A DNA stretch of 64,000 nucleotides from an uncultured Alphaproteobacteria bacterium (GCA_947367055.1 CANBCI010000003.1:161508-225507); one strand, 5' to 3'. Numbered from the stretch's first letter, positions 2,209-64,000 are shown. The notes: generated by a model from the letters alone, not told the origin. Numbers and translations: made by a program.

Positions 2209-2528
2209 AACGCCCGCACAGGCGGTTTTGTATAAGGGTTACTAGCCCCATTTGCAGCAGGACAGCCCATTGCAATCATATTGTATCATATACATTTACA
2301 ATTGCAACCGCCAAAATCTTTTAGAAGACCGGGGCGGGAGTCTACAGACACATCTTTGGTATGTGTTGGTTTATTCAATATATTCACCAACCTCCCAACC
2401 CCGAATGGGTTGAAAGTTTTACGCCTGTACGGGCAACCAAAGACCGAGTCTGTATATTCTCGGGCAACAGAAATCCTGTTGCAATCGGTACTATATCCTA
2501 AATATCCGGAATATGCAATAAAATAAAA

Positions 2529-2653
2529 CTGGATTGCCGCGGTCGCACTGCTCCCTCGCAATGACAAGGCCGAGATTAAACGCCCGGCAAACGAACGTTC
2601 GTATATTAAGTTCTTAATCCCTTTGTCATTGCGAGCGTAGCGAAGCAATCCAG
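2529..2653. repeat. nested-palindrome MITE/REP-like element, long variant (outer IR CTGGATTGC/GCAATCCAG, inner IR CGCAATGACAAG/CTTGTCATTGCG, core TTAAGTTCTTAATCCC)
   Basis: The inverted repeats are visible directly. It is a paralogous copy of the element at 3079-3172. Confidence 0.7.
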
Positions 2654-2678
2654 TTAATAACACTCGCAACACAAATTA

Positions 2679-2987
2679 TTATCGTATCCAAAACATATCT
2701 TGTTCAGACAAATCAAGCCAATCGGGATTTATTGATTCTATCAATGCAATTTTATTTTTGCGCGAACCAGATTTTAATTTTTTCTCTCGTTCCAAGGCAT
2801 CATTTACATAATTAAATTCTTCATAATATCCCAATTTATTGCAACCATATTTTGCGGTAAATGATTTTGGGGAAACTTTTGTTTTGTGTTCATGCACGCG
2901 GCGAACAACATCATTAGTGACGCCGACATACAGGGTGCCGTTGCGTTTGTTAAACATAATATAAACATAAAATTTATATTCTTTCAC
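2679..2987 (-). CDS. GIY-YIG nuclease superfamily protein (UPF0213/YhbQ-like)
   Basis: The N-terminal FYVYIM...GTLYVGVTNDVVRRVHEH motif is typical of a GIY-YIG domain. Length is about 100 aa. Confidence 0.7.
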   Translation of the reverse strand: MKEYKFYVYIMFNKRNGTLYVGVTNDVVRRVHEHKTKVSPKSFTAKYGCNKLGYYEEFNYVNDALEREKKLKSGSRKNKIALIESINPDWLDLSEQDMFWIR

Positions 2988-3078
2988 TTATTAAACTATA
3001 TCATATATTAGATTTTATTTCATATTATTTACAGTTGCCATGTGATTTAATAAATTGATTATGCTGCGCGCAATACCA

Positions 3079-3172
3079 CTGGATTGCTTCACTTCGTTCG
3101 CAATGACAAGTTCGTTATTAAGTTCTTAATCCCGTTGTCATTGCGAGGAGTGTTAACGACGAAGCAATCCAG
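3079..3172. repeat. nested-palindrome MITE/REP-like element, short variant
   Basis: It shares CTGGATTGC...CGCAATGACAAG...ATTAAGTTCTTAATCCC...TTGTCATTGCGAG...GAAGCAATCCAG with the 2529-2653 copy. It lacks a roughly 35 bp internal segment present in that copy. Confidence 0.7.
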
Positions 3173-3195
3173 TAAATAAATACAATTGGCACAAA

Positions 3196-3231
3196 TAAAA
3201 AAATCCCGTCGGTGATGAAACACCGACGGGG
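3196..3231 (-). terminator. rho-independent terminator (CCCGTCGGTG-ATGAAA-CACCGACGGG + U-run) for gene 3289..3624
   Basis: A hairpin plus A-run on the + strand lies downstream of the minus-strand stop. Confidence 0.6.
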
Positions 3232-3288
3232 CTCCCTTCCTTCCGGATTGTCCGGAAACTTTTGTGACCCGCAAAATATTTCGGGCTA

Positions 3289-3624
3289 TTATGCGGCGCG
3301 CAGTGTGGCCGGGCTTTCGTCGCCCTCTGCCGCGTCCATTATCTTTTTCGCCTCGGCAAAAACCATGCCCTTTACACGCAGCGCCAATGTCTTGGTATCC
3401 ATGGTTTCGGCCGCAATGTCAAAGTTATCTGTGCGTATCTGCAACGATACATACGCCCCCACCAGCGATGTGCGCGGCAAATCTTCTATTGAACGGGGCG
3501 CGTTGTTGTTCCCAATCTGTAATTCATCGGCCAGCGATATTATCTGCCGGTCTTCGTTCACCCATACCGTCGTCGTTAAAACTTGGTTCAGGGCAATCAT
3601 TATTTCTTTGATGTTCTTTGGCAT
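3289..3624 (-). CDS. hypothetical protein (111 aa), divergent from mraZ
   Basis: A clean ORF followed by a terminator. No family recognised. Confidence 0.45.
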   Translation of the reverse strand: MPKNIKEIMIALNQVLTTTVWVNEDRQIISLADELQIGNNNAPRSIEDLPRTSLVGAYVSLQIRTDNFDIAAETMDTKTLALRVKGMVFAEAKKIMDAAEGDESPATLRAA

Positions 3625-4001
3625 GTGCGGGTCCCTCCTTTCTGGGCTGGTGTTAAAATTTCAACCAAACTTTGTATTTACATCGTGTATTTACAAAAAT
3701 TTAATTAAAATTTATTGTTTCGTTTTTTGTTTTTCGCGAAAATCCGGTTTTTTGGCGGATTTTCGGGCTTTTTTGTTCTTTTCCCCTTGTCTATACACGA
3801 ATCATAGAACAAAAACGAATCGCAGGTCAAGCGAAAATTTCATTTATTTTAATTTTATTTTAATTTTTTCATGTTTTACTTATAAAACCATAAAATCCCA
3901 TAATTTGATTATAAAATGTCATTGACAACCAAATTTTGGCATGCTAAATTTTAATCGAAGCCAACCGAAAGACCGCGGGTCGCACCCAAACAAAGGTTAA
4001 A

Positions 4002-4605: not shown

Positions 4606-6869
4606 TATGGTGTCGGTGCCGTTTCTTTTTTGCAAGAACCATTATTATCTAGTGCCATTCCGGTCGGACATATGCACTGACCGCTATTATCACGAACCGA
4701 CCCGGTCCATGTACCGTTGGATAATACGCATTTGCTTTTCTCTGTAGTCAAACTAGTATTTACCGCATCATCCAACCATTCATGAATCTTGGCATCGGCC
4801 GTCACATTTTCAGACGACTCGCCATTAACACTCATACATGTGCCGATTATGGATTTGCACGCACTAATCGACGCATTGGACGGATTGGTGGTGTTGTATG
4901 AATATGTGTTATATCCGTATGTCGTGCTGTTCCGGTTCAGACAGGTCACCACCTCTGAAACGCAGGTTTCCGCATAATCGGACAGGATTGTATCCTGGGC
5001 CGCTTTTATTTGTGGCAGAACGCGTTCCATATAGTTTTTAATAACCTGGTTATTCGTTTGATATTGGTTGTTCGAAAAACTGTAATCCTGGCACATGTTC
5101 AGAACAGATGCGCACATACCGTCGGCCTTGCCAGTTTGACTGTCAATTCGGCCGATTTTCTGTTGCAGGAAATTTGCCATGACGGAATCCGCCTTGTCCG
5201 GGAATGTGCTGGTCACATACGCACTGATATAATCTGACAGGGTTCCGCTATCCCATGCGTTTTGGCCGCTGTTATAATTCCAGGTCGCATAGATTGTGCC
5301 GGTCTTGCTGTTTTTTGTATCACCGGGCGTTCCGGGCAAACTGCCCGCGACAACATCGCCCGCAACAATGAATTTGCCCGTCGGGTCCAGACAGTTTTCA
5401 TAATTCGTGCCGCAGACGAAATCTTCCTGCATGCACTTGTCCAATTCCGTCACGCATTCGCGCAGGTTGTACGCATTCTTTTGCTGGGACACCTGCAGAC
5501 GCGCGTTTTGCAGCAATACCTTTGCATTGCTGACCATTGATGACATTTGTGCATTGGACTCATTCAGGCTGCGTTCATACGCGATGCACTGCTTGTCAAT
5601 TTCCAGGTCATACGCGTTTGTGATGATTGATATGTCGACACCCTGGGCCTGGCAACTGTTCAGAACGGACGCCTTGCACCGGGCGGTTGCGGTCTTGTAA
5701 AGTTGCGCGCCGCGCTGGTTGCTGATGCTGTTTGTGGCGGATGTGTTCAGTATGCTGCCTGTGCCGATACTGGCCAGATTGAAGCCCGAACTATCCAACG
5801 AGAAATTCAACAGCCCGGACAAATCCGTTGAAACGCCCGATGTGGACGATGACGCCGTGCCGGTGTTGACATCAATAATCATGCCCTTGATTTTATCCAG
5901 GTTGCTTTTCAACTGGCTGGTGTCTGTGGATGACGACAGTTGTAATTCCGCCTCGGTCGCTTGGAACAAGCTCTCGACCTGGGTGGCCGTTAAACCGATG
6001 TAGCGCATGTTTTGCGCAACATTTTGCAATTCTTCGGTTGCCTTTTTCAATGCCTGTTCCGTCTTTTCATAATTGGCCAGATTGGAACTGCAGCTGCAAC
6101 GCCCCTGATTATCGTCCAGCACATTACAGAAATTATCCATACACGATGTGTACTGTGCCTTGCAAAAATCGGTGATTTGCGCCAATTCATCCATTGTTGC
6201 GGTGGTCGTTGCCGTGGATGTGGTTGTACCGCTATCCGTGGTCAGACCCATTTGAATTGACGGAACGCGCGCACTGACGGACGCGGTGGTTCCGCGAACG
6301 CCGACGCGGCCGGTGTACAGCGGCGCCGTCACCGTGTTTGACTGAATAATCGATGCGCGCGCGGCAACATTATTTCCGCCCGATGTTGTGACGGTATTGC
6401 GCCGTGTGGCGGTTGTCGTGGCCGAATTAGTGGTTGTGGCACTGCGCGCGGTGGATGTCGGGCGAACAGTTCTTGTCGATGATGCGGCGCGGGGCGCAAC
6501 CGTGCCGTTGGCCGCCGTTGTACTGCGCGCGGTGACGGTCGCGGTGCGTGTGCCGGCCGTACGCGAAGATGTGCCACGCGGTGATACGTTTCCGGTATTG
6601 GATGACACGACCCGTGTTGCGGTCGTTGTATTGCGGCCCGCATTGCGCGTTGCGCGCGCCGTGGGCGTTGCGACAACGGCCGGCGACACCGTCGGCTGGG
6701 GGGCCGGCTGCGTATTGGCCTGATCCGGCGCAATTTCTTCGTATTCCGCGCCAAACTGAACATAACCGTCATCGGTCATTTCAATTTCGTCATCGTAATA
6801 TATTGGCGCAACCTCCGCAAATGCGGGCAAAACCAATAATCCACTTAACACGGCAATAAATCTTTTCAT
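4605..6869 (-). CDS. large secreted Cys-rich protein (754 aa): signal peptide, approx 200 aa Thr/Ala/Arg-rich low-complexity region, coiled-coil, Cys-rich modules with EGF-like CxCxxG motif near C-terminus
   Basis: It has a signal peptide MKRFIAVLSGLLVLPAFA, many regularly spaced Cys, and GQCICPTGMALDNNGSC at the C-terminus. It looks paralogous to 51803..53659. Confidence 0.7.
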   Translation of the reverse strand: MKRFIAVLSGLLVLPAFAEVAPIYYDDEIEMTDDGYVQFGAEYEEIAPDQANTQPAPQPTVSPAVVATPTARATRNAGRNTTTATRVVSSNTGNVSPRGTSSRTAGTRTATVTARSTTAANGTVAPRAASSTRTVRPTSTARSATTTNSATTTATRRNTVTTSGGNNVAARASIIQSNTVTAPLYTGRVGVRGTTASVSARVPSIQMGLTTDSGTTTSTATTTATMDELAQITDFCKAQYTSCMDNFCNVLDDNQGRCSCSSNLANYEKTEQALKKATEELQNVAQNMRYIGLTATQVESLFQATEAELQLSSSTDTSQLKSNLDKIKGMIIDVNTGTASSSTSGVSTDLSGLLNFSLDSSGFNLASIGTGSILNTSATNSISNQRGAQLYKTATARCKASVLNSCQAQGVDISIITNAYDLEIDKQCIAYERSLNESNAQMSSMVSNAKVLLQNARLQVSQQKNAYNLRECVTELDKCMQEDFVCGTNYENCLDPTGKFIVAGDVVAGSLPGTPGDTKNSKTGTIYATWNYNSGQNAWDSGTLSDYISAYVTSTFPDKADSVMANFLQQKIGRIDSQTGKADGMCASVLNMCQDYSFSNNQYQTNNQVIKNYMERVLPQIKAAQDTILSDYAETCVSEVVTCLNRNSTTYGYNTYSYNTTNPSNASISACKSIIGTCMSVNGESSENVTADAKIHEWLDDAVNTSLTTEKSKCVLSNGTWTGSVRDNSGQCICPTGMALDNNGSCKKETAPTP

Positions 6870-7012
6870 ACGGAATCTTCCCTTCTATTATGATAATTTT
6901 ATCACAATGGCGCCCTGCAATCAAATGAAAAATAGGCGTTTGACAATGTGCGATTTGAAATGTTTTGCATATTCGCCCCGCGAAAAAAGGTTATGTTTTT
7001 TAATGAATTTTC

Positions 7013-7041
7013 TTGTAAAATATTGCAGTGATGTATATAAT
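7013..7041 (+). promoter_or_regulatory. sigma70-like promoter TTGTAA-17-TATAAT for PLD gene
   Basis: Consensus hexamers with 17 nt spacing lie about 30 nt upstream of the ATG at 7070. Confidence 0.45.
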
Positions 7042-7069
7042 CGCCAAAAAGAATTTTTTAGGGTGGAAA

Positions 7070-8659
7070 ATGTTTTCGCAATTCAAGAAAGTATCAATGT
7101 GTCTGGTGGCGCTGCCGCTGTTCGGGTGCACAACTGTGCCGACGACAACGCGCGACCCGCGCCTGAACGGATATGAGGCAAAAATAACCGACGCCGATTT
7201 TGATTACGACCCCATGCAGACCCCGATTGCACAGTGCTATGCCGGGGAACTGACAAACGGGTCTGAAATCAGTGGTGCCACACTTATCGAAGACGGCCTA
7301 TCCGCGTTTGTTATTCGTGCGGCCTTTGCACGCATGGCGACCAAGACCATTGATTTGCAAACCTATATCTACAGCAATGATTTCACATCCCACATTTTAA
7401 TCGGCGAACTGAAAAAGGCCGCCGACCGCGGGGTCAAGGTGCGAATACTGCTGGACGATTACGGCACACAGTCGGACATTGTCGATGTGATTTTGCTGAA
7501 CCAGCACCCGAATATAGAGGTCAAGGTTTTCAACACCGTATCAAACCGCACGCGCCTGTTGTATTATCCGCAGTTTTTAATGGATTTCAACCGACTGAAT
7601 TCGCGCATGCACAACAAACTGTTCATTGTTGACAATGTTGCGTACATAACGGGCGGCCGCAATGTGGGCAGCAATTATTTCTATCCGGAAACGGCATCAA
7701 ATTTCTCCGATACGGACGTATTGTTCCTGGGGGACATGACGCGTTATGCAACGCAAAGTTTTAATGAATACTGGACGCATCACCTGGCGATTCCGGCATC
7801 TGTTTTCCCAAAGGCAAACTCCAAAAAGGCCATGCGCAAATTAGAAGGGAAATTCCAACGTCTGCAGACCGAAGGTGCGGATGAACTGCGCAAGTACAAC
7901 ACGATTATTTCCATGGCGCAGCGCGAATACAAAACCAAAAAATTTGACTTCAGTTGGGGACACGGAAAGTTCTTGGCCGACCCCCCGCAAAAGGTTGAAA
8001 TGACCATGCGCGAAAAAGAATTGTATCGCGGCGAAATTATCACCGCGCTGCAAAACCTGTGGGATAAAACCCGCAACAATGTTTATTTGTCGGCGGCGTA
8101 TTTTGTCCCGGGCCAAGGTGGTCTGGAACACATGCTGCGCGAGGAAAATTCCGGCGTCCACCTGACCATTGTGACAAATTCGCTGGCGTCTACAAATGCG
8201 CCGACGGTTTATGCCAAGTGGGAAAAATACCGCAAGAAACTGATTGAATCGGGTGCGGACGTTTATGAATTTATGTTGTCGGCGGAAAATCTGCGCGGCA
8301 AGCAGCATGACCGCGAACGAAAGCAGTCTAGTTTTTCCGTTCTGCACAGCAAAACAATTGTGTTTGACGACGACATTTCATGGATAGGCAGTTTCAACCT
8401 GGATCCGCGCAGCGCGTATTTCAACACCGAAAATGTCGCGATATTTGAAAGCCGTGATTTCGCCCAGAAATTGCGCGACATGATTATAAAGGACACGCAG
8501 ACATCATGGCATGTGACACTGGACGACGGGCAGCCTGTTTGGACGGGAATGCGTCCGGGCGACCCGGCGCCGCGTGTATATCATCGCAGCCCCGACACCA
8601 CCATTTTCCGCCGAATATTGAAGGTGATGACGCGACTGGTGCCGGAAAAATTTGTGTAA
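7070..8659 (+). CDS. phospholipase D family protein / cardiolipin synthase-like lipoprotein (two HKD motifs)
   Basis: It carries HNKLFIVDN...GGRN and LHSKTIVFDD...GSFNLDPRS HKD motifs. The probable start is M at 7070 (lipoprotein signal ...LFGCTT). The track start 7028 overlaps the promoter. Confidence 0.8.
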   Translation: MFSQFKKVSMCLVALPLFGCTTVPTTTRDPRLNGYEAKITDADFDYDPMQTPIAQCYAGELTNGSEISGATLIEDGLSAFVIRAAFARMATKTIDLQTYIYSNDFTSHILIGELKKAADRGVKVRILLDDYGTQSDIVDVILLNQHPNIEVKVFNTVSNRTRLLYYPQFLMDFNRLNSRMHNKLFIVDNVAYITGGRNVGSNYFYPETASNFSDTDVLFLGDMTRYATQSFNEYWTHHLAIPASVFPKANSKKAMRKLEGKFQRLQTEGADELRKYNTIISMAQREYKTKKFDFSWGHGKFLADPPQKVEMTMREKELYRGEIITALQNLWDKTRNNVYLSAAYFVPGQGGLEHMLREENSGVHLTIVTNSLASTNAPTVYAKWEKYRKKLIESGADVYEFMLSAENLRGKQHDRERKQSSFSVLHSKTIVFDDDISWIGSFNLDPRSAYFNTENVAIFESRDFAQKLRDMIIKDTQTSWHVTLDDGQPVWTGMRPGDPAPRVYHRSPDTTIFRRILKVMTRLVPEKFV

Positions 8660-9180: not shown

Positions 9181-10128
9181 ATGAAATCATTTGTTTTTAT
9201 TGGTGTGGCGGCGGTCGTATTGGGCGCGGTCGGATTCGGAATTTATAAGTATAAGGAGTCAAAATTGCCAACAGTATATTTTTCGCGTGATATTTCCGCC
9301 GCAGGATTGGTGCGCGCGTATAATGCGGCGGGCTGGACACCAAATGGTGCGGTCGGCATCAAAATGTCCACCGGCGAACCACCCGCCAGCAACTACCTGC
9401 GGCCGGAGTTAATCGGCGACCTAGCATCACAGGTTCACGGAACCATTGTTGAATGCAATACCGGGTATGACGGCCGCCGCGCGCAAAGCGACGAACATTG
9501 GCGCGTTATTCGCGAACACGGATTTTTGGATGTCGCCCCCGTTGATATTCAAGACGAAGAAGGCAGCATGGCCATCACCGTTCCGAACCCGTTGCGCATT
9601 TCAGAAAATTATGTCGGAACGCATTTTGCAAATTATCCGTCATACATAATTTTGTCGCATTTCAAGGGGCATCAAATGGCCGGCTATGGCGGCGCATTGA
9701 AAAATATTTCAATCGGCTTTGCATCACGCATGGGCAAGGCATGGATTCATTCCGGCGGCACCAGCAAGGATGACCCGTGGCACGGGGAACAGGATGCATT
9801 TCTTGATTCCATGGCGGATGCGTCCGCCGCGGTTATCGATTATGTCGGCGCGGACAACATGCTTTACATAAATGTTCTTAACCGCATCAGCATTGATTGT
9901 GATTGCAACGGCAATCCGGCCGAACCCGATATTCACGACATAGGAATATTGGTGTCAACCGACCCCGTCGCCATTGACCAGGCCGGAATCGACATGGTGA
10001 CGGCGGCCCCGAACAATGCGGCGTTATTGAACCGGATTCATGAACGAAACGGCCTGCGAACGATAGAGGCCGCGGAAAAGCATGGTCTGGGGCACCGCAA
10101 ATACAAGCTCGTTGATTTGGATAAATAA
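9181..10128 (+). CDS. DUF362 domain protein (putative Fe-S protein) with N-terminal membrane anchor
   Basis: It has an N-terminal TM helix and an ...ISIDCDCNGNP... Cys motif. DUF362-like length. Confidence 0.6.
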   Translation: MKSFVFIGVAAVVLGAVGFGIYKYKESKLPTVYFSRDISAAGLVRAYNAAGWTPNGAVGIKMSTGEPPASNYLRPELIGDLASQVHGTIVECNTGYDGRRAQSDEHWRVIREHGFLDVAPVDIQDEEGSMAITVPNPLRISENYVGTHFANYPSYIILSHFKGHQMAGYGGALKNISIGFASRMGKAWIHSGGTSKDDPWHGEQDAFLDSMADASAAVIDYVGADNMLYINVLNRISIDCDCNGNPAEPDIHDIGILVSTDPVAIDQAGIDMVTAAPNNAALLNRIHERNGLRTIEAAEKHGLGHRKYKLVDLDK

Positions 10129-11187: not shown

Positions 11188-11515
11188 AATGATGCGCCGC
11201 GATATGCAGCAGTATACTGATTATAAATATGACCGTGACAATACCCAGAATAATTTTTTGGGGCCGGTGCGTGTGCCCGCCGTGACAATGTTCGCATTCA
11301 CATTTGCATTCGCGCATAACCAGCACCCACGACACCCCCAGCATTCCCGCCGAAAACACAAATATCCACGGTTCCAACCATTCGGGGATTATATGAAAAT
11401 GCGCAGATTCGGGCGCCACCAATCCAATGATTGACAGTGCAATCGGCAAACCGCAACAAAATATGTGCGGGACGATGCTTGCGACTATTCCAATTTTTAC
11501 GGCTTTGTTCTTCAT
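11186..11515 (-). CDS. MerT-like heavy-metal transport membrane protein (CC pair in TM1, cytoplasmic CKCECEHCHGGHTH metal-binding loop)
   Basis: It has three predicted TM segments. IFCCGLP resembles the MerT ACCLGP motif. Confidence 0.45.
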   Translation of the reverse strand: MKNKAVKIGIVASIVPHIFCCGLPIALSIIGLVAPESAHFHIIPEWLEPWIFVFSAGMLGVSWVLVMRECKCECEHCHGGHTHRPQKIILGIVTVIFIISILLHIAAHH

Positions 11516-11694
11516 GGCTGATAATTATAAATATATTTTTTTCATTTGCAAATCAATAAAGGTAGGCACAAATTCGCGTAAATTACCATTTGACCTTAAA
11601 AATCTTATGTGATTTAATCCGTGCTGACGACGGGGATCTCGTCGTTGGGTCTTACTAACCCGCAGTGTTGATGTCAGCGATGACATAAAATATC

Positions 11695-20225: not shown

Positions 20226-20624
20226 TTACTTTGCCTTCTGCATTTGTGCTGCATGTTGAATCATAGCTGCACGTGCGCGTTCGGATTTCACCACCTGACG
20301 CACCATTTCAACCATAATCAAATTACGATTCCCGCCGCGCCGCATTAGAAAACCGTTACGCGGCACACCGTCTATTTTCAATATTTCTGGTGCGATTTCT
20401 ACACCCAGGTCTGCCGCAATTGCGGCAAATTTATCGCCCGCGCCGGTGCGTGGCACAACAAACATATATTCAACCATTTGACTTGCCCGTGCACCGGTCG
20501 TCACCTCGCGATTGATATAACCATAATCGGCAACAGCATCACTGATTTTTTTATACGTGTCTTCCAAATAAGTCATAATCAGACTGTTTGCAATCCAATC
20601 ACGCGTTTGATTTTTTTCATTCAT
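20226..20624 (-). CDS. hypothetical cytoplasmic protein (132 aa), third gene of secreted-protein operon
   Basis: Its start overlaps the upstream stop (ATGA). Confidence 0.45.
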   Translation of the reverse strand: MNEKNQTRDWIANSLIMTYLEDTYKKISDAVADYGYINREVTTGARASQMVEYMFVVPRTGAGDKFAAIAADLGVEIAPEILKIDGVPRNGFLMRRGGNRNLIMVEMVRQVVKSERARAAMIQHAAQMQKAK

Positions 20625-21301
20625 TTATTTACTCCTATAATTTGCTCATTAGTATAATACCTTTTATATTGATTATGAATTTTTGCCATAGCCTCAATAA
20701 ATCTCTGGCAAGTGGTCGAATCCGCATTTAGCCTGCGTGCAATTTCATCATCACGCAATATAGATTCGCATTCAGTACGAATATCGCCCAACGAAGCCAT
20801 ATCATTTACAGATTGCATATAACCATAAAATGGGTCACTAAATGCCCCATACGCATCACCAAAAACCTCTTTCATAATATTACTGTATTCTAACACGTTC
20901 CATTGTATTTTTGTACTGGTATCATCCAACGCTGCAAAACCGGCTTCTGTATATTTAGTAACCAAATTATTGTGTCTACGAATTGCATCTATGGACGTTT
21001 CCAAACAAACATTGATAGCATTCGGCCCTTGATATACAGACATGCACTGGAATAAAATTTCTGCTGGACTGATTGTTACAACACCGTCCTTTGCATTCAA
21101 GTGCGAATAAAAACTTTTCCAAATCTCGTCAGCCTCTAATATACCATAATTAACACTCCTCAATGCATTAAAAAAAGCTCTTCTCAGTGCGTCTGCATAC
21201 CACCGAACAGGGGTGTGTAAGTCAAGATAAGTTGATGGTGTGTCCGCCATACTTGTGCCAACTATCATTAAAAGCCCAATGGCTGCAATTATTTTTTTCA
21301 T
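20621..21301 (-). CDS. hypothetical secreted protein (226 aa, signal peptide MKKIIAAIGLLMIVGTSMA)
   Basis: It has a signal peptide and is translationally coupled to its neighbours. Confidence 0.55.
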   Translation of the reverse strand: MKKIIAAIGLLMIVGTSMADTPSTYLDLHTPVRWYADALRRAFFNALRSVNYGILEADEIWKSFYSHLNAKDGVVTISPAEILFQCMSVYQGPNAINVCLETSIDAIRRHNNLVTKYTEAGFAALDDTSTKIQWNVLEYSNIMKEVFGDAYGAFSDPFYGYMQSVNDMASLGDIRTECESILRDDEIARRLNADSTTCQRFIEAMAKIHNQYKRYYTNEQIIGVNK

Positions 21302-22194
21302 TTTAAAGCCTCCTCACATCTGTCGGCAACTTCGGCCGCGCGTTTAATTGCAGATATTTGTGTTGCGTTGAACACTGTCGCGGTTACCGATGCAACCGTT
21401 GCACCACCCGCCATTACATTTGCCATAGTATTCAAATTCTTTTCTTTTTGCTCGTCGCCACTACGCACGCTTTTTGAATTGGCCATTACACTAGATATTG
21501 TTCCCGCCAATCCAAGTCCAGCACCAACACCACTGGATGCCGTTGCACCATTCGCACGCTTATTCACACTGGATAAGTTTACGGTAGCCCACATGCCACA
21601 TTCTGTTACAACTTTCTGCGCACGAATTATATCTGCATCTGAATCCGTACCTAATACACGCGCCTGACCCAATACACGCGACAGATTATCAATACCTGAA
21701 ATACAGTTATTAATTTGCGATTGCAAATCACCCTTTATACGGTTTGAACCCGCAATAGCCGCACCAGCAATATTTGTGGCGGTATTTGTTGCCAACAGAC
21801 CCGTACGCCAATTTCCAAGTTTTCTAGATTTTTCATCACCTTTATCATTAAGTGCTGTCTTCATATTTTCCAAATTGCGTGCATAATCCCTCAATTCTTG
21901 TTCAAACGCACGTTCATCTTCAATCTTCAACATTGGCAGTTTTTCAAATGCCTCTAATTGCGCATCCAGCGAAGATTTAGCGACACCAACCGCTGTGGCC
22001 GCGCCACCAGCCACGGCCCCCACCGCGGTCACGCCTGTATTTATGCCAGCCATTGTTTTCATGTCTAATAATTCCGCCGAAATATTGCCACAATTCTGGC
22101 GTACATTATCAAGCGCAGTTGTCAGTTCAGTTGAGGCATATCCAACGGATTCATAACATAACAACAGTGCCGTAATTAAAAATTTTTTTTGCAT
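21298..22194 (-). CDS. hypothetical secreted Gly/Ala-rich protein (298 aa; repeated GxxxG/AxxxA segments)
   Basis: It has a signal peptide, is the first gene of the operon, and carries an AAGAGGG SD. Confidence 0.55.
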   Translation of the reverse strand: MQKKFLITALLLCYESVGYASTELTTALDNVRQNCGNISAELLDMKTMAGINTGVTAVGAVAGGAATAVGVAKSSLDAQLEAFEKLPMLKIEDERAFEQELRDYARNLENMKTALNDKGDEKSRKLGNWRTGLLATNTATNIAGAAIAGSNRIKGDLQSQINNCISGIDNLSRVLGQARVLGTDSDADIIRAQKVVTECGMWATVNLSSVNKRANGATASSGVGAGLGLAGTISSVMANSKSVRSGDEQKEKNLNTMANVMAGGATVASVTATVFNATQISAIKRAAEVADRCEEALK

Positions 22195-41138: not shown

Positions 41139-41414
41139 ATTAACCACAGGGGTTGAAAAAATAAAGAAATGATTTATATATGTTCATGTATTCGGCACGC
41201 ACATTCGCGTGCCGTTTTTATTATACGCCAATTTGCGCCGCCCTGAAAAACGCGATATTTTGCGATTCGGATACACCCCAACAAAAGCGACAAACGAATC
41301 GAAAAACATAATCGCATTTCAACCATTGGTTGTAACATTTTACAGCCTTCAATTCTTGCTCTATACCAAAAGGACAACCTGTCATAAGTAATCTAAACAC
41401 AAAGGAGGGATAAT

Positions 41415-41759
41415 ATGACACAAAAAGAAGCCGTACTAAACAATTCGGAAAAATTCCAGAACGCCGAACAATTATGGTTTTGGTTTCTGTATTCAAAATC
41501 CGTTCAACATGGTTTTGTACGGAATTTTGGACGCGCCACCCGCAGACCCTGTGAATTGCTGGATGTTGAAACGCTGATAACAAAATTGTACCTGTCGGGT
41601 CGGCTGAATGACGAACAATTGGCCGTCATGAAAAAGTTCGGCGACCGGCGGCGCGCGCCACACCAACATATTTGGCATGAAAACCGTGCCGCGGACTTAT
41701 GGCGCCGCGCAATGGAAACATTGAACACGGCATTTACACAACAGGGATGGATTGAATAA
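41415..41759 (+). CDS. hypothetical protein (114 aa) with strong SD AAAGGAGGG
   Basis: A clean ORF with an RBS, in a small operon downstream of virB10. Confidence 0.5.
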   Translation: MTQKEAVLNNSEKFQNAEQLWFWFLYSKSVQHGFVRNFGRATRRPCELLDVETLITKLYLSGRLNDEQLAVMKKFGDRRRAPHQHIWHENRAADLWRRAMETLNTAFTQQGWIE

Positions 41760-61117: not shown

Positions 61118-61191
61118 TGGGGTGTCGTCTAATGGTAGGACAAGAGATTTTGGTTCTCTTTATCATGGTTCGAATCCGTGCGCCCCAACCA
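61118..61191 (+). tRNA. tRNA-Gln (anticodon TTG), U1-A72 first pair
   Basis: TGGGGTGTCGTCTAATGGTAGGACAAGAGATTTTGGTTCTCTTTATCATGGTTCGAATCCGTGCGCCCCAACCA folds as a cloverleaf. Confidence 0.8.
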
Positions 61192-62088
61192 GAATAAACA
61201 AAGTCACCCAAAAGGTGGCTTTCCTTTTGGAAAACCAAGATTTTTGCAGAGTTCGAAAATGTGATTTAAAATTTATTGACACTTTCGAACTAATTATAAA
61301 CGTATTGCAAGAATATGACATTTTTGATATAAATTTTATGAAGAGGTCTGGCATATGACTGGTATTGACTATATAAAAAATGCTGTTTTTGAATTGCTAA
61401 AAAATAATTCTAATGGGCATGATGATAAACATGTATTTCGCGTTTATAATACTGCCATGAATTTTTGTGACGATATTCCGTCGGCCAACCACGATTTAGT
61501 CGCAGCCGCAGCCCTGTTGCACGATTGCGACGATTACAAATTATTTGGCGAAGAATCAGAAAGGCTATTGACGAACACAAGACGCATATTATCAGGTTCT
61601 GGATTTGATGCCGAATTTTGTGAAAATGTTATCAATATAGTAAAAACAATTGGATACAGCAAGCGGTTGAAAGGTATTAAAGCGTATGGTATTGAAGGCG
61701 AAATTGTATCTGATGCTGATATGTGCGATGCATCGGGGGCAACTGGTATGTTGCGTTGTATTGAATATCGTTCTAGCAGTGGCCAACCATTTTTTGATCC
61801 AAATTATTTACCCTGTGAAATGGATGCCGCGACATATAGAAAATCAAAAATTGATCCATGCGTAAATCATTTCTTTGTTAAAATATTTCATTTGCGAGAT
61901 ATGTGTTTGACAGAACCAGGACGTAAATATGCGGCAAAAAAACATAAAGCCATTGTTGATTTCCTAAAAACATATTTTGACGAAGTCAATGCACCACAAA
62001 TATGGTACGATTTGTTGAAAAAATATGAATAAATAACCCGCATTCCGCCAGCACCCAGCACCCCACAACCACGATAAACAAAGTCACC
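61192..62088 (+). mobile_element. low-GC islet at tRNA-Gln 3' end flanked by approx 27 bp direct repeats (61183-61208 and 62061-62088), each followed by a similar hairpin terminator
   Basis: DR1 is CCCCAACCAGAATAAACAAAGTCACC and DR2 is CCCCACAACCACGATAAACAAAGTCACC. The enclosed HD gene is visibly AT-rich. Confidence 0.45.
61355..62032 (+). CDS. HD domain phosphohydrolase
   Basis: H...HD motif (HDDKHVFRV…LLHDCDD). Confidence 0.7.
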   Translation: MTGIDYIKNAVFELLKNNSNGHDDKHVFRVYNTAMNFCDDIPSANHDLVAAAALLHDCDDYKLFGEESERLLTNTRRILSGSGFDAEFCENVINIVKTIGYSKRLKGIKAYGIEGEIVSDADMCDASGATGMLRCIEYRSSSGQPFFDPNYLPCEMDAATYRKSKIDPCVNHFFVKIFHLRDMCLTEPGRKYAAKKHKAIVDFLKTYFDEVNAPQIWYDLLKKYE

Positions 62089-62138
62089 GCACAGGTGACA
62101 TTTTCTTTGATTTCCTAATATTTTATGCTTCTTTCGAA

Positions 62139-62687
62139 CTATTTTTTATATTTAACATAAACCAGTTCATCGCATTTGCCTGTACATTTTGCCCAGGATG
62201 CCATTGGCCGACGTTCCAAAAATTCATAACCATTGCGCTTTGCAACATTTTCTGAACGGATATTTCCGTCATCTATTTCAATGATTATTTTATTAAAGCC
62301 AAAGTTAAACAATTCTTGTTCAAGGGCGGACAGTGCCTCACCCATATATCCATTGCCAGATGCAGGCTTCGTCTGCCAGTATCCTACATAACCGGAATCT
62401 GCCCCCGTACGCTTAAAACGTATGCGACCAATAAATTCATTATCATGAAATATACCATAGCAGACAGCTTCATCCGTCACACGCTGCTGAATACGTTTTT
62501 GCAACAGTGCCTTAACATCATCGGGGGATTTTATATATTCCATGAAACCTTGAAAGCTTTCTATATAATCACGACTGCCGTCCATGGCATTATAAATCAT
62601 TTGTGCATTTTCATCGGTTGCATCCAACGTGCGCAATTCCAGCCGTAGTGTTAATATTGTCTCCGCAAATTCTGACAAAGGCCTCAT
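62139..62687 (-). CDS. GNAT family N-acetyltransferase (RimJ/RimL-like)
   Basis: It has the GNAT core (…IGRIRFKRT…GYMGEAL…). The start MRPLSEF is preceded by AAAGGA. Confidence 0.7.
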   Translation of the reverse strand: MRPLSEFAETILTLRLELRTLDATDENAQMIYNAMDGSRDYIESFQGFMEYIKSPDDVKALLQKRIQQRVTDEAVCYGIFHDNEFIGRIRFKRTGADSGYVGYWQTKPASGNGYMGEALSALEQELFNFGFNKIIIEIDDGNIRSENVAKRNGYEFLERRPMASWAKCTGKCDELVYVKYKK

Positions 62688-62908
62688 ATACAATCCTTTT
62701 ACATTATAGTTACCTGTATTATAGCACGATATCAAAACATGGCCTAGCCATTACCACAAATTAGCAGCATGGCCTTTACTTGTTCAATTTCCGGTGCCAT
62801 TTTGATTAAATCATTATAATAATTGGTTCGAAAATTGCCAGTCAGGCACAACCAAAATAAACAACACCGCCAAGAAGGGTGGTGCTTTTATCAATTCACA
62901 CAAAAATA

Positions 62909-63811
62909 TTATTCCGCATCATAATATTTATGGAACATCTTGGCGGCGGCACGCAATGATTTTTCAATATTAGAATTATTTTCGGCCGGCCCCCAACTTT
63001 TTATATCACTGCGTTCACCAATTCCCAAACATTTCCCAGGATTCAATTCCAGCGTTAACGGAAATTTGTATTTCATCTTTTTGAGCTCGCAAAAAAAACG
63101 TTTAAAATCAATTCCACCCATATGAAACGGATTATGAAAATCAACGCACGGATATGTATTGTGCAAATGGAATGTGAAAACACGATCTTTTAATATTTCC
63201 AATGTTTGCCAAAAATGCTTTTCCACATCTTTTTGGGCCTCTGGACTTTCAGATGCATACGCATGCCCCACATCAAAGCAAAATCCCAAATTATCCGCTT
63301 TGATTCTGTCTTTAAAATATTGTAAATTATTATGGTACGCAAACAGTGACCCCCGCATCCACGTTGTTTCAATCGCTATTTTCATACCATGCTTTGCGGC
63401 ATGTCGCGCCAATGCGTGTGCCCATTTCACGCACAATTCCATGCGCGCCGGATGTTCGGATAGTGGGAAAGCCCCTTCGTCTGGGTGTATAACCGCTACC
63501 TGTATCCCAAGCTTTGCATAATAATCAATACAGTCTTTGATATATTCCAACCGCTGTTTATATACTGCCACATCAAAAGACAATTGTCCGCCCACCATCG
63601 GCAAATGACCGCTGAAAAAGCGCAAGCCGGCATTACGCATTACTTTGTTGATTATTTTTGGATTCGTAGAAAAATGTCCGACGGACGGGAAATATTCCGC
63701 CGCGGAAAATCCGGTCTTTTTCAGAATTGCCGGCAAAGAAAAAAAATCGATGCCATAATCCTTGCTGGGGTGTTGACATTCAAACCAGCCGATATTAATA
63801 GACAGTTGCAA
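62909..63811 (-). CDS. sugar phosphate isomerase/epimerase (xylose isomerase-like TIM barrel)
   Basis: TIM-barrel AP-endonuclease-2/xylose-isomerase-like pattern (…AVIHPDEG…FDVGHAY…). Confidence 0.65.
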   Translation of the reverse strand: MQLSINIGWFECQHPSKDYGIDFFSLPAILKKTGFSAAEYFPSVGHFSTNPKIINKVMRNAGLRFFSGHLPMVGGQLSFDVAVYKQRLEYIKDCIDYYAKLGIQVAVIHPDEGAFPLSEHPARMELCVKWAHALARHAAKHGMKIAIETTWMRGSLFAYHNNLQYFKDRIKADNLGFCFDVGHAYASESPEAQKDVEKHFWQTLEILKDRVFTFHLHNTYPCVDFHNPFHMGGIDFKRFFCELKKMKYKFPLTLELNPGKCLGIGERSDIKSWGPAENNSNIEKSLRAAAKMFHKYYDAE

Positions 63812-63900
63812 AATATTCTCCTTTGGCGGAATTATATCATAATTTGGAAATGAAAATATCTGAAATTTTCTAAAATTTTACGTACTTTCGAACCGATAGG

Positions 63901-64000
63901 TTATTTATCAATCTTGAACTTTGGGTACATCTTCATATCACGCGGCACGCCATAAAGTTGAAAAGCACAACGCATGGCCACCGCATCACAGGCCATATCA
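63901..64000 (-). CDS. 3' end of a minus-strand gene truncated by window edge (…MACDAVAMRCAFQLYGVPRDMKMYPKFKIDK*)
   Basis: An open frame runs to the edge and ends in TAA at 63901-63903. Confidence 0.3.
   Translation of the reverse strand, partial: DMACDAVAMRCAFQLYGVPRDMKMYPKFKIDK

Follow-up and report, generated by a model that had tools for sequence, protein, structure and literature searches.

A probable decayed stack of integrative modules at the 3′-end of a tRNA-Gln gene in an uncultured alphaproteobacterium

The DNA analysed here (the window) is a stretch of 64,000 nucleotides from an uncultured Alphaproteobacteria bacterium (GCA_947367055.1, CANBCI010000003.1:161508-225507), towards the end of which a tRNA-Gln(UUG) gene is followed by a short run of AT-rich genes. 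The interval from 61192, immediately after the tRNA gene, to ~64007 (the islet) is a mosaic of modules and remnants. It is best read as a decayed stack of three integrative modules and two gene remnants that accreted at the 3′-end of tRNA-Gln(UUG), a reading to which a probability of about 0.68 is assigned. The modules contain the genes for an HD-domain phosphohydrolase, a GNAT acetyltransferase and a xylose-isomerase-like TIM-barrel protein (HD, GNAT and TIM hereafter; coordinates in Table 1), and the right edge is a deletion junction at the stop codon of the next gene, MatE, at ~64007, just outside the window. An initial annotation, made from the sequence alone, had proposed a decayed integrative element or an islet mobilised in trans. 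That idea is supported by the analysis, but what lies at the tRNA gene is a stack of three modules and not one islet. The accretion was probably mobilised in trans, any excision or integrase activity being a prediction from sequence.

The last ~10-25 nt of tRNA-Gln(UUG), which anchors the array, would constitute the attachment site. The 3′ half of this gene shows no differences across 64 related loci. The two repeat sequences originally reported are present exactly as quoted, CCCCAACCAGAATAAACAAAGTCACC at 61183 and CCCCACAACCACGATAAACAAAGTCACC at 62061-62088; extended without gaps, these copies 1 and 2 can be aligned over 62 nt at 71% identity, including a core, ATAAACAAAGTCACC, that is identical at 15 of 15 positions. 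There is, however, a third copy at 62849-62884, between the GNAT and TIM genes, so that the repeats number three and not two. The pattern AACCANNATAAACAA is matched three times in the window against an expectation of 0.21 (none of 100 shuffles reached three), all three matches being on the + strand and inside 1.7 kb. The hairpins previously noted downstream of copies 1 and 2 also withstood analysis, and copy 3 is followed by one as well: the three have folding energies of -10 to -15 kcal/mol, with z values from -2.8 to -3.2, and score as terminator-like, some of them in both directions. Copy 1 (fold -14.9 kcal/mol, z -2.8) has a terminator hairpin at 61200-61222 and a second, small hairpin at 61225-61240, and the terminator hairpin of copy 3, a copy also matched in a profile search (E 0.016), is at 62865-62884. 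The tRNA-derived share of copies 2 and 3 is short and imperfect, and the tract just 3′ of the tRNA is the best conserved part. The pseudo-tRNA 3′-end in copy 2, GCATTCCGCCAGCACCCAGCACCCCACAACCA, holds an internal 7-nt duplication (CAGCACC), and the flank of this copy is 81% identical to that of a displaced copy in a related genome (locus L005). The repeats are thus real, but they act as separators between modules; they do not bound the islet, whose true right edge is beyond the window.

The base composition of the cargo genes was compared with that of the 51 other long open reading frames (ORFs), which have a GC content of 0.491 ± 0.038 and a third-codon-position GC content (GC3) of 0.532 ± 0.070. 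The three genes, which had been described as markedly AT-rich (TIM being the sugar-phosphate isomerase of the initial annotation), were found to deviate with z values of -2.0 to -3.5. The statement that no integrase is present was likewise borne out: HD, GNAT and TIM are the only islet ORFs recognised by Pfam, none of them an integrase, and a tblastn search of the window with the serine recombinase of relatives (see below) matched the tRNA gene in antisense and nothing else.

A comparison of the locus in related genomes was based on 80 loci, designated by L and a number, that were recovered with a TolC-like gene as anchor from species-representative metagenome-assembled genomes (MAGs) of gut Alphaproteobacteria (Candidatus Enterousia and unnamed relatives). 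The order AcrB-HlyD-OEP-MarR-tRNA-Gln is kept nearly everywhere. After the tRNA gene there is an interval of 0.2-6 kb that usually ends at tRNA-Glu(CUC), MerR and GyrA and the content of which differs from genome to genome, its 452 ORFs falling into 244 protein clusters, mostly singletons, with restriction-modification genes, methylases and transporters among the cargo. The locus thus proved hypervariable at the very place where integration had been suspected. In the closest relative, L004 (AcrB 98%, OEP 93%, MarR 96% and HlyD 89% identical), HD, GNAT, TIM and MatE are all absent and DNA homology to the window ends at 61215, inside the first hairpin after the tRNA; HD, GNAT and TIM are absent from nearly all of the 80 loci as well. 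The usual arrangement is broken in several genomes (L004, L017, L061 and L075) by an inverted tRNA-Glu or tRNA-Gln, and in the lineage of the window the right flank is MatE instead of tRNA-Glu and GyrA; the hotspot is therefore also a breakpoint of larger rearrangements. A further peculiarity, absent from the window, is an unrelated protein of ~200-220 amino acids (aa) encoded between MarR and tRNA-Gln in many relatives (L036, L038, L040, L041, L059, L065, L069, L071, L076, L080 and L081), which has an H…HD motif and no Pfam match.

Displaced copies of the tRNA end are common in these relatives. An exact 14-nt copy, GTGCGCCCCAACCA, is found at most 1.2 kb downstream of the tRNA in 25 of the 55 loci with enough flank, four loci having at least two such copies; the chance of a copy is ~5e-6 per locus. 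The 10-mer of the tRNA end (at most one mismatch) occurs downstream 50 times on the + strand and four times on the - strand. A profile search for displaced copies, which superseded a strict regex-plus-hairpin scan that had overlooked known copies, gave 165 matches on the + strand and 86 on the - strand, generic terminators being taken along. Most displaced copies close units of ~170 nt that belong to two or three families and are tandem and identical in L039, L043 and L074. A unit of this kind also comes after a different tRNA gene, tRNA-Gln(CUG), in the locus L174, and there the copy corresponds to 20 nt of that tRNA's own end, GAATCCAGCTGCCCCAACCA. The displaced copies are therefore derived from the local target, as integration predicts, and represent genuine insertions into tRNA genes. 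A clean replacement polymorphism is provided by the pair L088 and L177, the flanks of which are ~94% identical: on the left, homology stops one base past CCA, and on the right it resumes at the end of the displaced copy. The variable segment between these points is 0.86 kb in L088 (terminator, inverted repeat and HD) and 6.1 kb in L177 (ABC transporter, a ~170-nt unit, TIM, MFS and others).

The ~170-nt units consist of a terminator, ~110 nt containing several hairpins, and an exact copy of the last 14-20 nt of the tRNA; examples are L074 12036-12387, L039 11989-12516, L043 12019-12363 and L174 9643-9815 (reverse strand). Those directly 3′ of tRNA-Gln represent at least three families, and of the 32 pairs predicted for family B, 16 show compensatory changes. 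That family B might be a tRNA-like or transfer-messenger RNA (tmRNA) gene was considered and rejected, there being no conserved acceptor pairing and no Rfam match; no Rfam family covers the repeats or any of the ~170-nt units. The units look like miniature, internally deleted derivatives of recombinase elements. The tRNA-Gln(CUG) gene of L174 (reverse strand, 9569-9642) is situated between a Lactamase_B gene and a TIM cassette, and together with the ~1.4 kb downstream of it forms a second insertion site with displaced 3′-end copies of its own.

Other genomes have two of the three cargo genes at comparable sites, with identities far above those of the core genes, in line with the mobility that had been proposed. 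HD is 94% identical to that of the window in L088, 88% in L089, 85% in L040 and 73% in L058; for these four loci in the same order, the values are 83, 73, 74 and 74% for AcrB, 78, 66, 65 and 66% for OEP, and 57, 48, 57 and 52% for MarR. Its place in the array varies: HD comes directly after the tRNA in L088 and L169, after the tRNA and one ~170-nt unit in L040, as the fifth gene in L089 and L090, and 4 kb along the array in L058, and a 69%-identical HD paralogue type is found elsewhere in other genomes. L089 and L058 share DNA homology with the HD module from the right arm of the inverted repeat described below (61275-61280) to ~10 nt past the stop codon. TIM has only 10 homologs in 5.8 billion proteins. 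One of them, in L174, is 91% identical at the aa level, and 89% at the nucleotide level over 62851-63856, a stretch that includes copy 3, even though the core proteins of that MAG are only 52-80% identical to those of the window; it follows tRNA-Gln(CUG) and its module retains a UUG-type pseudo-end, CCGTGCGCAGGACCA, and then AGATAGACAAAACCGCCC. A second homolog, 74% identical, belongs to the tRNA-Gln(UUG) array of L177. No homolog of GNAT was found in any related locus examined. An exact-sequence look-up of the HD protein gave no match; look-ups of MarR, TIM and GNAT led only to the same strain, in a sequence 1.6 kb longer and 99.96% identical, or to short contigs, and plasmid and phage collections searched at the DNA level yielded nothing beyond a trivial match.

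The shared cassettes have conserved ends. A pseudo-tRNA end of 24-26 nt, CGTTTCGCCCRCACNCCACAACCA, with terminal letters …CCACAACCA, closes cassettes in L088, L177, L089, L058 and others, and has 30 matches with at most five mismatches in 2.3 Mb. Copy 2 of the window fits this family and, since the family closes cassettes across genomes, is cassette-borne and not the product of random decay of a duplicated target. Because copy 2 belongs to this cassette-borne family, the downstream copies are not simple target duplications: of the attL/attR-type duplication originally suggested, insertion at the tRNA 3′-end is supported, but simple duplication of the target is not. A second conserved element is a 50-bp inverted repeat, GTTCGAAAGT-N30-ACTTTCGAAC, that many relatives have 3′ of the tRNA or of its copies. 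Its matches are concentrated downstream of the tRNA (65 in 421 kb versus 18 in 746 kb), and the inverted repeat of the window (Table 1) is a local, shortened form of it. Half-sites of the type GTTCGAAA at 62132, 62826 and 63886 also mark modules, five of the seven occurrences of this 8-mer in the window falling within 61251-63893, and TIM is flanked by left-arm-like and right-arm-like half-sites. The 50-bp inverted repeat may have a role in the proposed process.

A motif screen of 828 ORFs from the variable regions revealed two large serine recombinases and no tyrosine recombinase motif; Pfam found none in the window islet either. The two enzymes, from L044 and L073, are 57.5% identical to each other, have the Pfam domains Resolvase, Recombinase and Zn_ribbon_recom, and show XisF/CcrB-like similarity in NCBIfam. 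Their genes are immediately beside tRNA-Gln and read toward it, and the open frame runs on through the hairpin and the antisense of the tRNA 3′ half (…WLGRTDSNHDKENQNLLSYH and a stop). In both, the sequence that separates the tRNA from the inverted repeat shows conservation of the encoded protein. In several other loci the first ~100 nt past the tRNA translate to the recombinase C-terminus (aa 460-511, ~55% identity), which suggests that the blocks made up of a terminator and an inverted repeat are leftovers of recombinase genes. A 40%-identical recombinase on a viral contig (L179) overlaps tRNA-Pro(GGG) in antisense just as those of L044 and L073 overlap tRNA-Gln, so these proteins may form a tRNA-targeting clade of serine integrases. 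The presence of such an enzyme at the same tRNA in relatives strengthens the view that integration took place there. A metagenome scan with the L044 recombinase gave mostly tRNA-Gln antisense matches and few real recombinases; it also added tRNA-Gln loci, including L169 with its HD gene beside the tRNA.

Another enzyme is associated with this junction. In at least 11 genomes the CCA of tRNA-Gln is followed without a gap by a unit of ~0.4 kb encoding a GIY-YIG nuclease of 81 aa, which is missing from the window; in L089 this unit occupies 6856-7260 (gene 6963-7208), the same flank being found in L026, L029, L049, L050, L054, L056, L069 and others. It ends …TTTATCAAGG, followed by a degenerate tRNA end, and could be a homing-type contributor to the hotspot.

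Taken together, these data are consistent with a model in which each incoming circular module would bring a tRNA-end-like attachment site together with its own A-rich tract and terminator hairpin. Site-specific recombination in the last ~10-20 nt of the tRNA gene would place the new module directly 3′ of the tRNA, and with each insertion the older content, including the previous terminator, would be shifted downstream. Module 1 would then comprise a terminator, the inverted repeat, the HD gene and a pseudo-tRNA end; module 2 a terminator, the GNAT gene, a remnant of another cassette and a pseudo-tRNA end; and module 3 a terminator, the TIM gene and the remnant of a second GNAT gene. The best candidate for the enzyme is the large serine recombinase family present at this tRNA in relatives, which would act in trans; that this recombinase moved these particular cassettes, and the exact point of crossover, are suppositions of the model. 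Internal deletion may then have removed the recombinase and left the cargo alone. The hairpins would terminate tRNA and cassette transcripts in both directions, each cargo gene having its own putative promoter. Mobility would require an enzyme supplied in trans, because the three modules have no recombinase. The islet is probably no longer mobile, since the copies in the window are degenerate and the right end is a deletion junction.

Several observations weigh against this model. The integrase is absent from the islet and also from the 1.6 kb recovered past the window; in relatives the recombinase is intact in only two of ~64 loci (L067 has a fragment at a contig end), and it was never seen adjoining HD, GNAT or TIM. 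The tRNA part is weak in copy 2 (9 of 11 nt, with an indel) and in copy 3 (~8 nt), and the tract to the right of CCA varies widely among genomes, which is awkward for a sequence-specific half-site of a serine recombinase. The same arrangement was present in all samples of this species, no excision polymorphism being observed, and L004, with a right flank that is inverted or rearranged, could not be taken for a clean empty site. All of the comparators are MAGs, the repeat regions of which may be misassembled. Inverted pairs of the 24-nt pseudo-end CGTTTCGCCCACACACCACAACCA, spaced by 0.4-1.8 kb and enclosing unrelated cargo, are found in 11 loci (L089 7388-7411 and 8280-8303; L058 6446-6469 and 7142-7165; L036 7601-7624 and 8446-8469; and eight more loci). 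Simple insertion does not account for these pairs, which may reflect inversion or insertion in either orientation; that they might be the ends of an insertion sequence was rejected, given the unrelated genes between them and the lack of a transposase domain. Finally, terminator blocks of the same genome are more alike than orthologous blocks of other genomes, both in the window and in L088. This likeness indicates that gene conversion or homologous exchange contributes, an explanation that fits as well as co-transfer.

The last point leads to an alternative in which the hotspot has no dedicated integrase and is fed by homologous recombination after DNA uptake, anchored on the tRNA and on intergenic blocks of ~100 nt; the pseudo-end, terminator and inverted repeat would then be shared regulatory or terminator modules and not attachment sites. 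It would explain why the window lacks an integrase, why blocks within a genome are nearly identical (~85 nt at 93% in L088; those of the ATAAACAA type, which recur within the window) and why the homology of the HD cassette stops at different points in each genome, and boundaries at the tRNA end are also to be expected of homology-anchored exchange. Homologous exchange makes no new copies of a tRNA 3′-end, yet exact 14-20-nt copies of the local tRNA (UUG or CUG, as the case may be) exist in the 25 loci mentioned and in L174; in addition, a recombinase gene overlaps this very tRNA in relatives, and the TIM module moved between two tRNA-Gln loci with unlike flanks. As the whole explanation, homologous recombination is therefore considered unlikely.

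A different enzyme could also drive the hotspot, be it the GIY-YIG nuclease, cutting the site and followed by repair-mediated capture, or a recombinase for which the 50-bp inverted repeat is the true crossover. The GIY-YIG unit does recur at this junction in many loci; as for the inverted repeat, it is about as long as a serine-integrase attP and is over-represented 3′ of the tRNA, HD homology begins at its right arm, and TIM lies between half-sites resembling its two arms. The window, however, has no GIY-YIG gene, and ~170-nt units of family A multiply without any such inverted repeat. Moreover, in L044 and L073 the stretch from the tRNA to the repeat is element-specific coding sequence; the crossover there was therefore at the tRNA and not at the repeat, which was set aside as a crossover site. 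This possibility is improbable, although not as far-fetched as the idea that nothing was inserted at all and that bidirectional terminators with A- and T-rich shoulders evolved independently next to native AT-rich genes. It is true that the best-matching part of the repeats, an A-tract plus hairpin, could be shared by any terminator, and that other low-GC ORFs exist in the window. Against this stand the three repeat matches on one strand only where 0.21 are expected, the tRNA-like sequence upstream of each copy, and the absence of the genes from the closest relative. The identity of the cassettes relative to the core, the mere 10 TIM homologs scattered over genomes, the tRNA-Gln(CUG) locus of L174 and the L088/L177 pair already contradict such a native origin, which is very hard to sustain. 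Accretion of integrative modules thus remains the preferred reading.

Table 1. Features of the tRNA-Gln(UUG) islet and recombinase genes of related loci
Feature	Position	Strand	Basis or remarks
tRNA-Gln(UUG), encoded CCA	61118-61191	+	ARAGORN; Rfam tRNA, 57.7 bits
Repeat copy 1: last 9 nt of tRNA, tract GAATAAACAA, hairpins	61183-61244	+	Sequence comparison; fold
43-bp inverted repeat, arms AGTTCGAAAATGT / ACACTTTCGAACT, spacer 22 nt	61250-61292	.	Fold z -3.4
Putative HD promoter, TTGCAA-17 nt-TATAAA	61305-61333	+	Read from sequence
Cargo 1: HD-domain phosphohydrolase, 225 aa	61355-62032	+	Pfam PF01966; GC 0.360 (z -3.5), GC3 0.280
Repeat copy 2: pseudo-tRNA 3′-end, tract CGATAAACAA, terminator hairpin 62083-62099	62040-62124	+	
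Half-site AGTTCGAAAG, remnant of 50-bp inverted repeat; overlaps GNAT stop codon	62130-62139	-	Comparison with L005
Cargo 2: GNAT acetyltransferase, 182 aa	62139-62687	-	Pfam PF13302, PF00583; GC 0.394 (z -2.6)
Remnant of the 5′ region of another cassette: 18-codon ORF 62744-62800, promoter-like site 62813-62841	62744-62857	-	
Repeat copy 3: GGTTCGAAAAT (T-loop-like half-site), degenerate tRNA end ...GGCACAACCA (ends 62854), tract AAATAAACAA	62825-62884	+	
Cargo 3: xylose-isomerase-like TIM-barrel protein, 300 aa	62909-63811	-	Pfam PF01261; GC 0.416 (z -2.0)
TIM upstream region: half-site GGTTCGAAAGT at 63886-63893, then 50-bp-repeat-like spacer	63812-63896	-	Read from sequence
3′ remnant (~35 codons) of second GNAT gene	63904-64000, on to ~64008	-	tblastn 53% over 45 aa, E 1e-9
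MatE (next gene)			GC 0.489 (z about 0)
Large serine recombinase, 511 aa	L044:1975-3510	+	
Large serine recombinase, 511 aa	L073:3700-5235	+	
40%-identical recombinase, end of 36-kb IMG/VR viral contig	L179:10001-11482		tRNA-Pro(GGG) at 11459-11535 (-)

The three cargo proteins all score below the curated NCBIfam cut-offs: HD is YedJ-like (PRK10119, 44 bits versus the 286 required) and GNAT is RimL-like. No defence family of PADLOC was matched by them. The layout of the putative HD promoter is conserved upstream of HD in L088, L089 and L058; the site was not listed by a consensus promoter scan. The remnant upstream of GNAT is 85% identical to L005 (62778-62857), 92% to L177 (62808-62855) and 71% to L015 (62774-62871), loci in which its counterparts stand before intact genes. 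The remnant of the second GNAT gene abuts the MatE stop codon, and its parent gene neighbours TIM in L174. MatE itself, which is reached on a metagenome contig that is 99.96% identical to the window and adds 1635 nt, is a native gene present throughout the family; it has many ~60%-identical homologs on large contigs, those named by source being labelled Alphaproteobacteria or 'bacterium'. On the other side, the upstream neighbours of the tRNA are MarR and an RND efflux operon. Milder low-GC patches are present elsewhere in the window, with ORFs that have no Pfam match at 20226-22194 (-), 2286-3925 and 41221-41583 (-) (GC 0.37-0.46, z down to -3.1). They may have been acquired as well; repeats of the tRNA-Gln type and GTTCGAAA sites are both absent from their vicinity.

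The closest analogue is offered by the ssrA-specific islands of Dehalococcoides, which are low-GC, stand in tandem downstream of one small-RNA gene and are delimited by 20-bp direct repeats of the end of the tmRNA gene, insertion having been inferred to occur in or after the T-loop (McMurdie et al. 2011, PMC3146451). They have a CcrB-like serine recombinase of ~540 aa on the reverse strand beside attL, and those that lack an integrase were read as cis-mobilisable units gathered by accretion (PMC3146451). Both systems have units arrayed in tandem and delimited one by one by repeats of the 3′-end of the target gene, some of the units being without an integrase. In the present case, however, the target is a true tRNA gene and not a tmRNA gene; the modules measure 0.17-1.4 kb and often hold a single gene, whereas those of Dehalococcoides are ~10-30 kb long with a six-gene integration module; and the modules are marked by the conserved pseudo-tRNA end and the 50-bp inverted repeat. 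A recombinase next to attL and reading toward the target is missing from the window and present in L044 and L073, where the ORF overlaps the tRNA itself.

Islands as defined by Islander have an intact tRNA gene at one end, a 3′ fragment of it displaced to the other end on the same strand, and foreign composition. The islet resembles them in its intact tRNA-Gln(UUG), its composition and its absence from close relatives. In the window the same-strand fragments at 62061 and 62849 are weak and degenerate, and the right boundary itself holds none; relatives have exact copies of 14-20 nt. Islander, which recognises tandem arrays, accepts only islands that contain a tyrosine integrase, and in 2015 no serine-family integrase was known to target tRNA genes (Hudson et al. 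2015, PMC4383910). The islet has no integrase, by contrast, and the candidate enzyme is a serine recombinase.

Accretion and cis-mobilizable elements (CIMEs) were described for ICESt1 of Streptococcus thermophilus; such CIMEs are kilobase-long derivatives of tyrosine-recombinase conjugative elements that occupy the 3′-end of a protein gene. With them the islet has in common segments flanked by attachment sites and devoid of recombination and transfer genes, which are in tandem at one site and could be mobilised only in trans: three repeat copies delimit three modules without an integrase. The difference is that CIMEs stem from conjugative elements with tyrosine recombinases, whereas mobilisation in trans is here deduced from sequence. 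Integrons also come to mind, given the mostly single-gene cassettes, the one fixed platform, the varying position of a cassette and the conserved, imperfect boundary site. An integron was nevertheless rejected: there is no IntI among the 828 ORFs screened or in the islet, and no attI, Pc or attC; the cassettes come with putative promoters and terminators of their own and in both orientations; and they are mounted on a tRNA gene, with pseudo-tRNA ends as boundary sites.

The islet of the window would on its own be an ordinary decayed example of a textbook tRNA-linked island; the interest lies in the family-wide platform. In a lineage some of whose genomes measure ~1 Mb, the tRNA-Gln locus, joined in some members by a second tRNA-Gln, appears to be a major site at which accessory genes come and go, and the units exchanged are often single genes with conserved ends, an integron-like outcome obtained without integron machinery. 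The only integrase seen at the site is the large serine recombinase overlapping the tRNA, a relative of which does likewise at tRNA-Pro in a phage. As a tentative generalisation, which is rather less probable than its opposite, the tRNA-Gln genes of small-genome gut Alphaproteobacteria (Candidatus Enterousia and relatives) might be a platform on which cassettes are captured by a clade of large serine recombinases that target tRNA 3′-ends and whose own coding 3′-end overlaps the attachment site; single-gene, self-promoted cassettes would carry the 24-nt pseudo-tRNA end and the 50-bp inverted repeat, the ~170-nt units would be miniature derivatives that multiply in tandem, and the islet of the window would be a fossil of this process. 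If the enzyme does recognise a short, conserved tRNA end, it would be a natural serine integrase with a landing site conserved in many genomes, which would bear on the flexibility of reduced genomes and possibly on genome engineering.

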